Below, piece after piece: positions 7,480-56,674 of a stretch of DNA of 64,000 bases. Each line of letters opens with the position of its first letter. The first letter of the stretch is position 1. The translations under genes were made by a program, and so were the position numbers. The stretch comes from Ginglymostoma cirratum (lineage: Eukaryota), in contig JAHRHZ010000059.1 in the NCBI GenBank assembly GCA_024137785.1, positions 26,378,559 through 26,442,558 on the forward strand, written 5' to 3'. The notes beneath the pieces are model-generated. The model was not told the origin of the DNA, made no database searches, and worked only from the letters and a program-made list of their open reading frames with translations.

Positions 7480-7675
7480 AACCATGGAGTTCTCCCCATG
7501 GCCAATATTCATATCTCAATTGTCACTATCCGCTCATTATTACATTGCTGTTTGTGGGAGCTTGCTGTGCACAAACTGTGTTGCCTGCATTACAACAAAG
7601 GTCACACTTCAAACATATTTCATTGGTTGGAAAGGTGTCCCCAGTGGTTGTGAAAGGCACTATGTAAATGCAAAG
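7480..7675 (+). mobile_element. DeuSINE/SacSINE1-like 3' portion with an L2-type tail
   Basis: ATTGCTGTTTGTGGGAGCTTGCTGTGCACAAA ... GTGAAAGGCACTATGTAAATGCAA. Confidence 0.6.
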
Positions 7676-8203
7676 AGATAAAAGGTACTGCAGATGCTGG
7701 AGAATCCGAGATAACAAGCATGGGGCTGGATGAACACAGCAGGTCAAGCAGCATCANNNNNNNNNNNNNNNNNNNNNNNNNNNNNNNNNNNNNNNNNNNN
7801 NNNNNNNNNNNNNNNNNNNNNNNNNNNNNNNNNNNNNNNNNNNNNNNNNNNNNNNNNNNNNNNNNNNNNNNNNNNNNNNNNNNNNNNNNNNNNNNNNNNN
7901 NNNNNNNNNNNNNNNNNNNNNNNNNNNNNNNNNNNNNNNNNNNNNNNNNNNNNNNNNNNNNNNNNNNNNNNNNNNNNNNNNNNNNNNNNNNNNNNNNNNN
8001 NNNNNNNNNNNNNNNNNNNNNNNNNNNNNNNNNNNNNNNNNNNNNNNNNNNNNNNNNNNNNNNNNNNNNNNNNNNNNNNNNNNNNNNNNNNNNNNNNNNN
8101 NNNNNNNNNNNNNNNNNNNNNNNNNNNNNNNNNNNNNNNNNNNNNNNNNNNNNNNNTGATGCTGCTTGACCTGCTGTGTTCATCCAGCCCCATGCTTGTT
8201 ATC
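7676..8203 (-). mobile_element. Fold-back Penelope-like non-autonomous element, copy A (400-N gap at 7757-8156)
   Basis: Perfect inverted arms flank the gap; 14-bp TSD ATGTAAATGCAAAG at 7662-7675 and 8204-8217; 34-nt unpaired tail. Confidence 0.75.
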
Positions 8204-8374
8204 ATGTAAATGCAAAGTTCATTTGTCTGCAGATGGTGAGCTCTGCGTATAAAAGCTGCTCACTATCAGGGGCTAGCATGGCTACCTTCCTTGGGGCACA
8301 GAATCCAGAAGATGTTTGGAATATTGGACAGGTTTGGAGATCCGCTGGTGCATAACATATTAAACACTAGAATT

Positions 8375-8693
8375 AGAATCCCTACAAGTGTGGAAACAGG
8401 CCCTTCGGCCCAACGAGTCCACACTGACCCTTGGAGCATCCCACCCAGACCCATCCCCCTATAACCCACACACCCCTGAACACTATGGGTAATTTAGCAT
8501 AGCCAATCCACCTAGCCTGCACATCTTTGGACTGTGGGAGGAAACCGGAGTACCCGGAGGAAACCTACGCAGACACAGGGAGAATGTGCAAACTCCACAC
8601 AGACAGTCTGTGTGAGGCTGGAATTGAACCCAGGTCCCTGGCGCTGTGAGGCTGCAGTGCTAACCACTGAGCCACTGAGCCACCGTGCCACCC
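8375..8693 (-). mobile_element. HE1-type tRNA-derived V-SINE
   Basis: Pol III A/B boxes (GGCTCAGTGG, GGTTCAATTCC), V-domain GGTTTCCTCCGGGTACTCCGGTTTCCTCCCACAGTCCAAAGA, and a CR1-like tail. Confidence 0.85.
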
Positions 8694-52264: not shown

Positions 52265-53122
52265 TGATCTGGACTCTCCCTGATCCGGACTCTCACTGAT
52301 CCGGTCTCTCGCTGATCCAGACTCTCTCTGATCTGGACTCTCACTGACCCAGATTCTCCCTGACCCGATCTCTCACTGACCTGGATTCTCTCTGACCCTG
52401 ACTCTCACTGACCCGGACTCTCGCTGATCCAGTCTCTCACTGACCCGGACTCTCACTGACCCAGACTCTTACTGATCCGGTCTCTCACTGATCCGGACTC
52501 CCTCTGAACCAGACTCTCCCTGACCCAGACGCTCCCTGACCCAGACTCTCCCTGTCCTGGTCTCTCGCTGACCCAGACACTCACTGATCTGGTCTCTCGC
52601 TGATCTGGACTCTCACTGATCCGGACTCTCCCTGATCTGGTCTCTTGCTGATCCGTTCTCTCGCTGATCTGTTCTCTTGCTGATCCGGTCTCTCACTGAT
52701 CCGGACTCTCCCTGATCTGGACTCTGACCCAGACTCTCCCTGATCCAGGCTTTCGCTGATCTAGACTCTCACTGATCTGGACTCCCCCTGACCCAGGCTC
52801 ACCCTGACCCGGACTCTCGCTGATCCAGACTCTCACTGATCCGGACTATCCCTGATCCGGTCTCTTGCTGATCTGTTCTCTCGCTGATCCGTTCTCTCGC
52901 TGATCCGGTCTCTCCCTGATCCGGACTCTCCCTGATCTGGACTCTGACCCGGACTCTCACTGATCTGGACTCGCCCTGATCTGGACTCTGACCCGGACTC
53001 CTGCTGATCCGGACTCTCCCTGACCCAGACTCTCACTGATCCAGACTCTCACTGACCTGGACTCTCCCTGACCCAGACTCTCACTGACCCGGACTCTCAC
53101 TGACCAGGGCTCTCCCTGATCC
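52265..53122. repeat. 16-bp minisatellite (CTGAYCYRGACTCTCN), roughly 54 units
   Basis: TGATC recurs at 52265, 52281, 52297, 52313 and 52329, and the pattern continues to about 53120. Confidence 0.95.
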
Positions 53123-53604
53123 ATCTCCTCCCTGTTCCTCTAATCCCTGGCTCCATTGCTTGTGGATTCGCTCTCTCCTAAGCACTGAGTATGAACTGTG
53201 GAGTGTGATGTAGGAAGCAGGAGGGACAGTGTCAACACTGAGGAAGTGTCACAGTCTCCTCAAGTCGGTTTGTGATTAACCTCACACCTTTTTTGATCAG
53301 AAATCTCATGGAAATAGATCCTTAATCCTGACAAAAAGAGAACCTATGCCATGATGGCTTGATCATGTGGGGACAGAGGGTCATCATGTGACTCCTTGCT
53401 GTCACACATGGGTTGTGAACTCTGCTGGTAAGACCAATACTGATTGTTCAACCCCACTTGTTCTTGTCAGGGTTAGGAATGAGCTTTAACCTTTTCAGGT
53501 GTCTGTGAGTTGAGTAACTGATGGGTATGTGCCACAACTTTAGAACTTCCTTGCTTTTTTGTGCCAAGTGGGATACGGTGATACCGCACACCTCACACAG
53601 CATT

Positions 53605-53849
53605 CAGAGACAGCAAGAACTGCCAATGCTGGAGTCAGAGCCAACACAGTGTGGAGCTGGAGGAACACAACAGGTCAGGCAGCATCAGAGGTGCAGAACA
53701 GTTGATGTTTCGGGTCGGGACCCTTTATCAGAACTTGTAAAACCATACTGTGAAGCCAGTTCTGATGAAGGGTCCTGACCCGAAATGGTGACTTTCCTGT
53801 TCCTCTGATGTTCTGACCTGCTGTGTTCCTCCAGCTCCACACTGTGTTG
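53605..53849 (-). mobile_element. Complete fold-back element, copy D, with two head-to-head hammerhead-like cores
   Basis: Inverted arms of about 90 bp, a spacer of about 25 nt and a 37-nt tail. TSD CCTCACACWGCATT at 53591-53604 and 53850-53863. Cores at 53704-53731 (-) and 53762-53789 (+). Confidence 0.8.
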
Positions 53850-56674
53850 CCTCACACTGCATTGTCTGGACTTTTGTGCTGAACTGAGCAAGTGTGAATG
53901 CCAGAATTGCTGCTCAGTTTATCCTTTAATAACAGTAGGCTCTGCTGTCCTAACCATTTCTTCATCTCAAAAATCTGAACAAGTCTGTGAAGGTGGGAGC
54001 TGAGATTCACTCTTGCCTATTCGTCAGTTCATTTCTGTCAGGGGCATAAGAGGCAAAATTCATTCACTTCTCATTCCATATAAATGACCATGACTCTGAA
54101 GCTTGTCTTCGCTATAATGTCACTTTGTTAACTTATTTGGAACAGCTCCTTGTCCCTTAACATGGAATCTTTGATTTAAACCACAAAAAATATATAGCCG
54201 TGCAATCAAGTTAAGAATGTTATCTGGTTAATGGATTGGAGCTACATTTTCCTTTTAAGAATTTTTTTTTTAAATTTATGTAAGTTTCTTCATTTTGGTC
54301 CCTTCTTAATTCTAATTAATCTACTTTACGCTTTTACTGTCACCAGAATACCTTCTTTTACAATATTCAGCATTTCTGGTGACATTTATCCCAGTGGAGA
54401 AGATACAGTCTCATTCCATTAATATGGCATTGATTAAGCATCTTTGTCTCCCTATCCCTACTCCCATTCATTGGTCCATGAATCAGTCTGAGGACCATAG
54501 TGGCTTAGACAGGGTGGAAGTGACAGATAGAGTTAATTACTTGCTTAGCTCATTCCGTATTAGAACTGACAATTATGTTTGTCTTCCATTTTTGCACCTT
54601 TTCATGCCTTAATGTGCAGAGCTGGGATTTCCCTTGGGTGGGAATGCAATGTGTTTGTACTTAACATCAGTGTACAGCAAGCCTGACATTCAATTTCACT
54701 GCCCTCTGCAGAGCAACAACAGAAGCCTGTAACAGGCAGTGGACGTAATATCACACGCTTTGTGTTAGCGACCCAATGTAATTTCCGACCTGCAGTGTCA
54801 TACTGGGGTCCACACTTATCAGTCATTACTCCAACTGCTCCCAGCTGGCTAGGCTTTATGAATGATCCTTTATATCGAGGGGTTTTAGGATTGTCAACTA
54901 TTGAGAGAATTCGCAAGAAAAGTCAACAAGGTTCCAGCCTGGCCCTTTCCTCATCCAACACCTGTCCGTGCTTGTGACCTTTTAATTCATTCATGGAATG
55001 CAGGCATCAGTGGCAAGGCCAGCATTTGTATCCCATCCCTAAATACCCTTAAGAAGGTGTCTGAGCTACATTCTTGAGCTATTGCAGTCCCGTTGCAAAT
55101 CACGTATGACTTGCTTGGGGCATTTCAGAATTCGTTTTAGAGTCCACCACATTTCTCTAGGTCTGGAGTCAAATGTAGGCCAGACTGGATAAGTTCAGCA
55201 GATTTCCCTCCCTGAAGGACATTCATGAGGCAGCTGGGGTTTTAAGTCAGTCTGGTACGTTCATATTTCGCAGCAGGAGGCATTTGGCAAGAGAAGGTTG
55301 CACAGTGGTAATGGTCACTGAGCCACTAATACAGAATTATGGACTCAAATCTCACCATGGCCAATGCTGTGTGGTACATGAGTATCTGCATGGAACCAAA
55401 GCAATGTGCAAAGGACAAATCAATCATTGAAAGTGCAAGACATTAATTTGAGGCCCCTCATCAGAATTGCTGGAAGTTCTTAGTTGTTATGGGTTGTTTG
55501 GGTGAGTCATACTTAAAACATTCAGTTTACCAAAGTTTTAATCCACTAAAAGTAGATTTGTTTCACATTTTGAACTGTGACTTTTTCCTATCTCAAATTC
55601 TAGTCTAATGAATGCAGGATTCCAATTTATACAAATTGGAGTTCATTTTGACTGTTCTCGAGAGTGAACTGGGTGATGGGAGCTTTATCAGAGGCAGGCA
55701 GTGATGGTGCAGTGTCATGCCACTCGGCGAGTAATTAGGAGGCCTCAGGCTAATACTTGAGGGGCATGAGTTTAATTCTCATTGCATCAAGCTGGAATTG
55801 AAAGCTAGTGTCAGTGACGATGACAACTGTTAAAATATCAACCTGTCCAGTTCACTAATGAAGGAAATCTGCCATTCTTACCCAGTGCGGTCTACATGTG
55901 ACTCCAAACCCAAAGCAATGTGGTTGATTCTGAACTGCCCCAGCAAGCCATGCAGTTTAGGGGCAATTGGGGATGTGTAACAAATGGTGGCCTTATGCCC
56001 ATGTCCCATTGGAAGAATAAATTTAAAGAAGCAAAGTGGATGTCAGTTTTTTTTTTATATTGCCTTTTTAATACCACAATGATACGCAAAATTACCCTGG
56101 GTCCTAAAGAGTCAAAAAGTTACAGCTTCAAATGTGAGGAAAATGTTCTGTACTGCCTTTGAATAAAACTGGATATCTTTGTAATGTGAAGGCTGATAGG
56201 GGATGCCAAGTGTCATACTAATGCTGTCATCCTTGATCCCAAGGGACCACCTAAGGGAAAGAAAGGAAAAAGGTTCTAATCCACCGTGTGACACATTCAT
56301 AAAGGTGGTCTCATTTCAAATCAAACTGGATACAGCCAGAATCTCTATATGGTACTTTTGGGAGTGTGATTATTACTCTCAACAGTGCAGTATAACTCGA
56401 GTAATACTTTAAAAGCACCCTTGAGTTTCTTTCTAACTTTGAATGATCTACCAGACTATAACTTCCCTACAATAAATACGTGATTCTATCTTTATTTTTC
56501 GTGCAGGGATTGAAAATCGATTGGGAGAAATGTTCTTTTGGAGTTTATGTCTGTTGCGGGTGGTGATCTGATTGTACAGTAATGTCAGTCAGATTCAAAG
56601 CATTAACCCTACAGCATTCAACAACTAAGACCAAAAAAAAATAGTTTTGCATCCAGAATATTGCTACTTTATTG

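Follow-up and report, generated by a model that had tools for sequence, protein, structure and literature searches.

Short inverted insertions in a shark genome window as probable 3' ends of Penelope-like element pseudo-LTRs

In a 64-kb window of Ginglymostoma cirratum DNA (the whole stretch analysed here), we found eight non-coding insertions that are probably retrotransposed ~130-nt 3' ends of the pseudo-LTRs (pLTRs) of Penelope-like elements (PLEs), belonging to at least three subfamilies and made by a PLE reverse transcriptase (RT)-endonuclease encoded elsewhere. We regard an origin from PLE pLTRs as very likely, and we lean towards twin priming as the source of the inversions. The copies are PLE end fragments whose architecture is not novel: inverted pLTRs, one-sided tails and opposite-strand hammerhead pairs are already in print, and the initial annotation's suggestion that the ribozyme-plus-hairpin architecture may be undescribed in sharks is accordingly not supported. 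Such insertions resemble MITEs or microRNA hairpins, and naming them PLE ends is useful, if ordinary, annotation. Their junctions may also record how PLE inverted ends arise; the formation of the inverted pLTR and one-sided tail is described as not settled (PMC11167929 and the available text of PMC8557442).

A family of eight insertions

All eight insertions were related by blastn, and a profile built from nine of their arms recovered every locus (8/8) with no matches in the reversed window, bearing out the earlier count of at least eight. Profile scores were weak for copy H (E 0.15) and for the tail of copy C (E 0.025), though both were strong by blastn; extra matches fell at 11031 (20 nt, E 0.12) and 54917 (E 2.5). 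The density of ORF-free copies was 8 per 64 kb. Five copies (A, B, D, F, and G) are head-to-head fold-backs with duplicated arms, C is an inversion without duplication, and E and H are single arms; an inverted, 5'-truncated repeat adjoins the 5' end head-to-head in six of the eight (A, B, C, D, F, and G). Matched by tail length, copies A to F of the initial annotation are A, D, C, F, B, and G here. An assembly gap of 400 N interrupts two of the eight insertions sampled, A and D, so that their lengths and interiors were not observed, and neither has a visible hammerhead; the gap edges overlap by 22 nt in D and are reverse complements over 47 nt in A.

Young copies include A (7676-8203, minus strand), a fold-back with its tail at 7676-7709 and 47-nt arms on each side of the gap at 7757-8156, and D (42932-43545, plus strand), which has two inverted arms, a direct arm and a tail. 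The first inverted arm of D (42932-42996) ends within 1 nt of where cleavage is predicted, and three additional T separate it from the second (43000-43040); the direct arm lies at 43037-43083 and 43484-43545, with the 22-nt overlap across the gap. Copy B (12691-12951, plus strand) represents an old, divergent subfamily and is a head-to-head fold-back with a micro-duplicated junction at 12789-12808. Copy G (43759-43926, minus strand), a fold-back of a third subfamily, turns at an apex within the helix II 3' strand (43852), keeping only GAAACGUU (43857-43864 on the plus strand). Copy F (53605-53849, minus strand) is a head-to-head fold-back with a 22-nt spacer (53736-53757). In C (46617-46750, plus strand), the inverted arm (46617-46714) meets the tail (46710-46750) at a 5-nt microhomology; these parts adjoin each other in the unit, and neither is duplicated. 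Copy E (42660-42782, plus strand) is a single direct arm that begins at the helix I 5' edge and includes the tail, and H (12021-12061, plus strand), near the detection limit, consists of the tail only, from RT start site 1 to site 2. Mismatches between arms rise from 0/47 in A through 5/64 in G and 13/92 in F to 18/88 in B; these values support the earlier proposal of several subfamilies of different age.

Unit layout and tail

In the unit, the hammerhead core is followed by ~60 nt, then by site 1, the tail and site 2, with site 1 about 88-97 nt and site 2 about 119-131 nt after C3. Every copy has exactly one 3' tail of ~30-40 nt, measuring 34 nt in A, 31-36 in D, 37 in F, 30 in G, about 36-42 in B, and 36-39 in C; the unpaired tails of 34, about 31, 37, and 30 nt claimed earlier for A, D, F, and G were thus recovered. 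Inverted arms stop 12-20 nt past one common anchor (6/6 copies) and tails end 6-20 nt beyond GCAGT (8/8), while site 1 is where H and the direct part of C begin. A head-to-head arrangement and a single tail characterise all six inverted copies, a pattern that two independent RNAs, using either site at even odds, would give with p of about 0.016 by our own arithmetic. The 3' ends carry no poly(A) and no short tandem repeat, and the tail showed no similarity to other repeats of the window.

Between subfamilies, identity was high in CUGA.GA (40/48), GAAA (21/30, 24/30, and 14/16), the arm block (184/244, 164/202, and 72/102), and the tail (24/30, 24/30, and 13/15), and low in the spacer (44/96, 47/96, and 30/56) and linker (46/141, 43/134, and 37/66). 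Preferential conservation of the core, proposed beforehand as a test of the hammerhead interpretation, is seen in these values.

Target-site duplications

Target-site duplications (TSDs) of 7-17 bp flank all eight copies, varying in length and sequence as first reported, with no common sequence. They measure 14 bp in A (7662-7675 and 8204-8217), 7 bp in H (12014-12020 and 12062-12068), 12 bp in B, 11 bp in E (42649-42659 and 42783-42793), 12-17 bp in D, 13 bp in G, 10 bp in C, and 14 bp in F, with one mismatch each in B, E, and F. Among 192 random position pairs, 13 scored at least 7, five at least 8, and three at least 10; given these scores, the TSD of H is weak alone, yet duplications at eight of eight copies are not chance. 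An empty-site paralogue was obtained for one of the eight loci: removing G and one 13-mer restores the old LINE-like fragment that hosts it, and the restored fragment can be aligned, junction included, with a paralogue at 57001-57149.

Hammerhead cores

A perfect minimal type I hammerhead core occurs just once in the window, in C (46685-46712, minus strand), where helix I is broken. It comprises CUGAAGA, a bulged A, a 5-bp helix II with one G.U, GAAA, the CG palindrome, and UC, matching the published consensus for minimal hammerhead ribozymes (min-HHRs), bulged nucleotide and CG palindrome included, as given in the available text of PMC4209133. None of 40 simulated windows held such a core. 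Of the six arms that span the core, this one is perfect, five are decayed homologues, and none carries a complete intact ribozyme. The CUGANGA...GAAACGUH motif attributed to three copies is exact in C only: each arm of F has two core departures, and the B inverted arm (12757-12786, minus strand) and tail arm (12810-12840, plus strand) have two (including G8 to A) and four. In F, helix II is intact in both the tail arm (53704-53731, minus strand) and the inverted arm (53762-53789, plus strand), as is a 4-bp helix I, with one G.U in the latter; E has five departures and its GAAA box is destroyed. With two core mismatches allowed, the window gave two matches against 0-2 in the 40 simulations, so the cores of F count only through homology to C.

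Helices I and II were paired in 89% of 46 cells, against at most 54% when slid; covariation amounted to one compensatory change, a number reached by 237 of 500 shuffles and therefore not significant. All nine arms folded no better than shuffles (z -1.3 to 1.2), and Rfam returned no family at gathering score. No locus held a same-strand pair of cores, and opposite-strand cores cannot form a dimeric ribozyme within one transcript. The ribozyme would ride along in the pLTR, mostly uncleaved in the template, and decay neutrally after insertion.

Proposed mechanism

We suggest that a GIY-YIG endonuclease would make staggered nicks 7-17 bp apart, and that the two 3'-OH ends would prime on a single RNA at internal positions, one using site 2 and its partner site 1 (twin priming), frequently with 0-5 nt of microhomology. 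A site-2 cDNA halting at site 1 would yield C, an inversion without duplication, or H, a tail only; one continuing by displacement would let the two cDNAs extend into the hammerhead region and become joined at their ends, yielding A, B, D, F, and G; and a second end left unextended would yield E. Alternatively, C could have started as a fold-back and subsequently lost an arm through its microhomology. For the anole element in vitro, the two strands showed no difference in start site (PMC11167929), so a coupling of one site to each strand would be conjectural.

Visible 5' ends bear on the template. Eight of 13 lie upstream of the predicted cleavage site, which indicates that the template was mostly not ribozyme-cut, and the anole PLE uses uncleaved RNA as its main substrate (PMC11167929); the initial proposal of a ribozyme-processed template is therefore not upheld. 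The clustering of ends at the hammerhead 5' edge hints at a ~130-nt template RNA, and a dedicated short RNA is a reasonable prospect that we stop a little short of expecting. More tentatively, sharks might carry a dedicated ~130-nt non-autonomous Penelope RNA starting at this edge and inserted by obligate twin priming, in which a dimeric PLE RT-endonuclease would prime both nicked target strands on one RNA, at two fixed internal sites; C and H would be intermediates, the fold-backs would result from run-through, and D would be an infrequent copy made from RNA cut by the ribozyme. If true, a single step would account for both the inverted pLTR and the one-sided tail in all PLEs.

Alternative explanations

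The insertions are short and non-coding and have inverted repeats, as MITEs or fold-back DNA transposons do, but TSDs of varying length without a common sequence, repeats that are not terminal, and TSDs around the three copies that lack duplicated arms make this highly improbable, as the initial annotation had argued. A SINE-like repeat moved and inverted by twin priming of abundant CR1/L2-type LINEs is also very unlikely: the window is rich in LINE-like remnants, and twin priming is described for L1 (available text of PMC2246262), but the 3' ends lack poly(A) or tandem repeats, the tail is unlike the window's other repeats, ARAGORN found no tRNA genes and no tRNA-like head was seen (decayed heads would be missed), and both the min-HHR and an internal inversion point at a fixed position are typical of PLEs. 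The insertions match the published pLTR signature at every point (an inverted, 5'-truncated arm, a one-sided tail, a variable TSD and a minimal type I hammerhead), in agreement with the first interpretation of PLE-type retro-insertions bearing minimal type I hammerheads. A sizeable but lesser chance attaches to the copies being extreme 5' truncations of full-length PLE transcript 3' ends, made by RT stalling at the hammerhead, with no separate short RNA. PLE insertions are highly 5'-truncated, and of the 13 5' ends visible, seven occupy scattered positions downstream of the helix I 5' edge; however, the other six lie at that edge (in B and F, inside junctions of 20-22 nt), none of the six gap-free copies reaches more than 22 nt upstream of it, and the 3' side of a structure is where stalling would be predicted for an RT that travels 3' to 5'.

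Hammerhead-cleaved or circular templates, as in non-LTR retrozymes, seem quite unlikely. The end of D inverted arm 1 is as they predict, but it is a single case beside a gap, which we estimate to arise by chance with a probability of roughly 0.1 across the ends seen; most ends lie upstream of the cleavage site, and opposite-strand cores cannot pair as a dimeric ribozyme in a single transcript. Retrozymes of this type derive from PLE pLTRs and were found in the one chondrichthyan sampled (10.64898/2026.07.22.740005), yet the insertions contain no head-to-tail units, and none of five TRF rows in the window falls at their loci; the label retrozyme-like given them earlier is not supported. An inverted arm formed by snap-back self-priming (of cDNA at a hammerhead helix, or on an antisense template), with the tail arising by endonuclease resolution of an intermediate, is somewhat unlikely. 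Within helix II, the apex of G forms a perfect palindrome whose loop is 1 nt, which suits snap-back equally well, young arms are identical (47/47 in A), and self-priming and endonuclease resolution of the tail have been proposed (available text of PMC3846280 and PMC8557442, respectively). However, B and F have non-palindromic junctions of 20-22 nt, C has no duplicated arm, D arm 1 stops and synthesis restarts at site 1 after three added T, which looks independent, and in vitro two RT start sites enclose exactly the tail (PMC11167929). Since the short copies hold both junctions and the whole template in one read, their genome-wide tabulation could discriminate snap-back from twin priming and reveal any cutting of the template by the ribozyme in vivo.

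Coding partner and relatives

Autonomous endonuclease-bearing PLEs have one ORF for a telomerase-related RT and a GIY-YIG endonuclease. Pfam families for RT or GIY-YIG were absent from all 241 open frames of at least 66 aa in the window, and the copies, being non-coding, are not filed as autonomous PLEs. No longer protein carrying the arm peptide was found, a weak negative, and bacterial and archaeal genome contigs gave no matches to the repeat. All ten phmmer matches were whale shark ab initio gene models, of which P0005 and P0003 read from antisense arm into sense arm at the hammerhead 5' edge. PLEs are expanded in the whale shark genome (available text of 10.1101/443036), and insertions of this kind seed false gene models, such as these ten predictions, as well as assembly gaps. 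A miRNA search gave sub-threshold matches.

Comparison with known systems

The closest relatives are endonuclease-bearing PLEs (Penelope/Poseidon and Neptune clades), among which clade assignment would need an RT. These share an inverted, 5'-truncated pLTR with a 30-40 bp tail at one end (available text of PMC8557442), head-to-head arms, variable TSDs, a hammerhead in the pLTR, and assembly trouble at their loci; unlike them, the shark copies have arms of only 40-130 nt, with no visible ORF or 3' UTR between them. Adineta Pen2/Pen2a has a 31-bp tail and 8-10 bp TSDs and is mostly head-to-head (available text of PMC3846280). In Poseidon PAc of Anolis carolinensis, compared here by description, a hammerhead is likewise followed ~90-130 nt later by two tail-bounding ends, which are internal RT start sites; the purified protein, modelled as a dimer, nicks and extends both strands, and hammerhead mutants insert normally, consistent with an uncleaved template (PMC11167929). 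The PAc ORF starts inside the hammerhead, whereas the shark subfamilies, separated by indels, share no open frame.

Metazoan PLE min-HHRs share with the shark copies CUGANGA, the bulged base, a G-C pair closing helix II, GAAA, the CG palindrome, UH, and a 3-5 bp helix I, occurring as opposite-strand pairs 100-700 bp apart or as solo motifs from truncated PLEs (available text of PMC4209133); the shark helix II is short by comparison (5 bp, 2-4 nt loop), and the available text of that paper's supplement file 2 includes no chondrichthyan min-HHR. Non-LTR retrozymes are also non-coding, hammerhead-bearing and pLTR-related, have long TSDs, and include dispersed monomers, but are defined by head-to-tail tandem units and circular RNAs (PMC7229834; 10.64898/2026.07.22.740005), whereas in the shark copies the units, single or inverted, bear a PLE tail. 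Copy C resembles L1 twin-priming inversions in being inverted-plus-direct and non-duplicated with junction microhomology (Ostertag and Kazazian 2001, as given in the available text of PMC2246262); in contrast to L1, each of the two primers in the shark copies would begin inside the RNA at a fixed site, the sites being separated by the length of the tail, and the arm is mostly duplicated.

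The insertion family and its target sites

The insertions form a real family, best classed as non-coding copies of a pseudo-LTR (pLTR) end that behave like insertions of endonuclease-bearing (EN+) Penelope-like elements (PLEs), with formal membership hinging on a link between the arm and an ORF for reverse transcriptase (RT) plus GIY-YIG. Eight related non-coding loci were found (A, 7676–8203; H, 12021–12061; B, 12691–12951; E, 42660–42782; D, 42932–43545; G, 43759–43926; C, 46617–46750; F, 53605–53849), and blastn and profile searches of the window returned no further credible copy. 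Every arm aligns, in the ribozyme-sense direction, to one unit of ~130 nt, which runs through the helix I 5′ strand, CUGANGA, a bulged A, helix II, GAAA, CG, UH, and the helix I 3′ strand, then a spacer, a block, a linker, and a tail, of which the block and tail are conserved and the spacer and linker variable. The copies fall into three sequence groups (A/C/D/E/F/H; B; G), between which identity is 70–88% in the core, arm block, and tail and 32–56% in the spacer and linker; the F spacer has no 11-mer match anywhere else in the window.

All eight loci are flanked by direct repeats of 7–17 bp with mutually unrelated sequences, indicative of target-site duplications (TSDs). Among 192 random position pairs, 13 scored 7 or more, matching or exceeding H, the lowest-scoring of the eight loci, and 3 scored at least 10. 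The TSD of G was verified by comparison with a paralogous LINE-like fragment, where the 13-mer occurs once. The tail lengths given by the initial annotation were recovered in the copies labelled here A, D, F, and G (34, 31–36, 37, and 30 nt, respectively). A 20-nt match to the arm block at 11031–11050 is possibly an old remnant; its TSD score of 1 amounts to no TSD, and it was left out of the copy count.

Gaps of 400 N lie inside A and D, so that both copies are incompletely observed. The gap edges are reverse complements over 47 nt in A and overlap directly by 22 nt in D. One linked-read assembler leaves gaps of this kind and presumably uses a k-mer one nucleotide longer than 47; A would then probably be a hairpin, perfect but collapsed in assembly, and D may lack no sequence at its gap.

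State of the hammerhead

A perfect hammerhead core is kept only in C, the helix I of which is broken. This core agrees with the consensus of metazoan PLE minimal hammerheads (PMC4209133), and none of 40 simulated windows held one. Both arms of F retain both helices, with two core departures per arm. In the arms of C, E, and F, the invariant positions of the core depart from the consensus at least as often (6/43) as the other positions do (35/376), and CpG-type changes are numerous, a pattern that points to decay of the ribozyme after insertion. An identical G8-to-A core change occurs in both B arms (12780 and 12815) and in one F arm (53726); its presence in both arms of B suggests that the source RNA of that copy may already have carried a weakened ribozyme.

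Helix pairing was in register in 89% of 46 cells, compared with at most 54% when slid, and covariation of the helices across the arm alignment was below significance. The bare CUGANGA..GAAAC motif was not above chance in the window (1 observed vs 1.28 expected); of the two descriptors, the structured one alone exceeded it. Rfam gave no match at the gathering threshold over the whole window and, at E ≤ 10 over 42500–54000, 16 sub-gathering matches, none to a hammerhead family, the best being generic miRNA hairpins placed on the fold-backs (paired head-to-head arms). Because none of nine arms folded better as a single strand than its shuffles, we do not claim a conserved arm–tail stem.

Template and mechanism of insertion

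Two putative internal start sites, one tail-length apart, bound the tail on the unit: inverted arms all start 12–20 nt past the same anchor (site 1), and tails all stop 6–20 nt past GCAGT (site 2). Thirteen 5′ ends are visible. Six lie at the helix I 5′ edge: those of E and C and, next to junctions of 20–22 nt, the ends of the two arms in each of B and F. Two fall in helix II (G), and arm 1 of D ends where cleavage is predicted. The remaining four lie further downstream, those of H and of C's direct part being at site 1. The initial annotation had proposed a ribozyme-processed template, but 8 of the 13 ends run upstream through the cleavage site, and cut RNA could not have templated those. The exception is D, in which arm 1 halts at position 1.1 and is followed by three extra T and a restart at site 1; this is a single case with the gap adjacent. 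The 5′ ends cluster in a way that suggests a short template RNA, which may be a solo-pLTR transcript or the product of initiation within the 5′ pLTR of a full-length RNA; internal promoters have been described for PLEs (PMC2377424). Stalling at the ribozyme is a possible alternative source of the clustering.

The unit, its ends, the TSDs, and the orientation of the arms are read directly from the DNA. Established PLE biochemistry would add staggered nicks in the target and internal initiation at two sites, and we infer that both target 3′ ends would prime on one RNA, one per site. Such priming would give head-to-head arms with exactly one tail, the arrangement found in all six inverted copies. 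In fold-backs, both cDNAs would reach the hammerhead and then be joined, and the B junction carries templated micro-duplications; C would represent a stop at site 1, H a tail only, and E run-through from one primer. Against two-site priming, the start site in vitro showed no difference between strands, C may be a later deletion, and the apex of G is consistent with snap-back. If the twin-priming and short-RNA reading is true, the finding gains in interest.

Coding partner and related shark sequences

Among 241 open frames of at least 66 aa in the window, Pfam identified no RT or GIY-YIG domain, a search that shorter or broken remnants would escape; it returned three Meis matches and five weak sub-cut-off matches, which were disregarded. 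Protein searches by word index yielded no coding partner; a further one gave two matches, both short whale shark models, and two DNA pattern scans of bacterial and archaeal genome contigs gave none. A 32-residue open frame of C matched 10 proteins among 1.84 billion, all short single-member whale shark gene models that are spurious translations of the same repeat. In two of these, P0005 and P0003, the reading switches from antisense arm to sense arm at the hammerhead's 5′ edge, which suggests that further fold-backs may exist in the whale shark, with splice calls a possible contributor. An expansion of Penelope-like elements has been reported for the whale shark genome (10.1101/443036).

Genomic surroundings

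Exons of a Meis-family homeobox gene lie on the minus strand at 26865–27104, 24968–25594, and 24055–24255 (Pfam PF16493), and the frame at 27667–28068 (minus) holds a probable N-terminal exon, Meis1-like in appearance. Copies A, H, and B are on the 3′ side of these exons and the rest upstream. None of the eight lies within 13–42.6 kb, around the Meis exons; E, D, and G, of differing subfamilies or ages, are packed within 1.3 kb (42660–43926), with C 2.7 kb further. This clustering away from the exons could reflect selection or, at n = 8, chance.

A ~260–310 bp repeat in three copies, 85–88% identical (8374–8684, 44170–44430, and 60458–60764), presumably resembles a shark tRNA-derived SINE. Decayed LINE-like fragments, which we assume to be CR1-type, occur at 43680–44160, 57001–57149, 51431–51640, 59517–60034, 5765–5992, and 50272–50673, and copy G sits within one of them. 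A second old dispersed family, 67–80% identical (17604–18294, 38413–39079, 45579–45681, 48397–48521, 54982–56021, and 61084–61346), probably consists of LINE 3′ ends. Tandem repeats comprise a 16-bp minisatellite (52260–53122; ~55 copies, 77% matches) and a 44-bp repeat (20848–21135; 6.3 copies) terminating in a 10-N gap with edges overlapping by 24 nt.

Comparison with known elements

The architecture is already known; neither this shark family nor twin priming in PLEs was described in the literature searched, which included little subscription coverage, and a Dfam or Repbase entry for the family is possible. The retrozyme-like option in the initial annotation was not supported. Non-LTR retrozymes, which occur also in the only chondrichthyan sampled, are tandem pLTR derivatives (10.64898/2026.07.22.740005; PMC7229834), and no tandem arrangement occurs at these copies. 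Inverted 5′-truncated copies with a 30–40 bp tail at one end are described as hallmarks of PLE insertion (PMC8557442; PMC8969392). Rotifer PLEs have 31-bp tails, 8–10 bp TSDs, head-to-head palindromes, and solo pLTRs, with pLTRs alone mobilized in trans (PMC3846280). Opposite-strand pairs of minimal hammerheads 100–700 bp apart have been known since 2014 (PMC4209133). In work on the anole, a purified PLE nicked both strands and extended them, began synthesis at two internal sites bounding the tail, and inserted RNA that had not been cleaved (PMC11167929).
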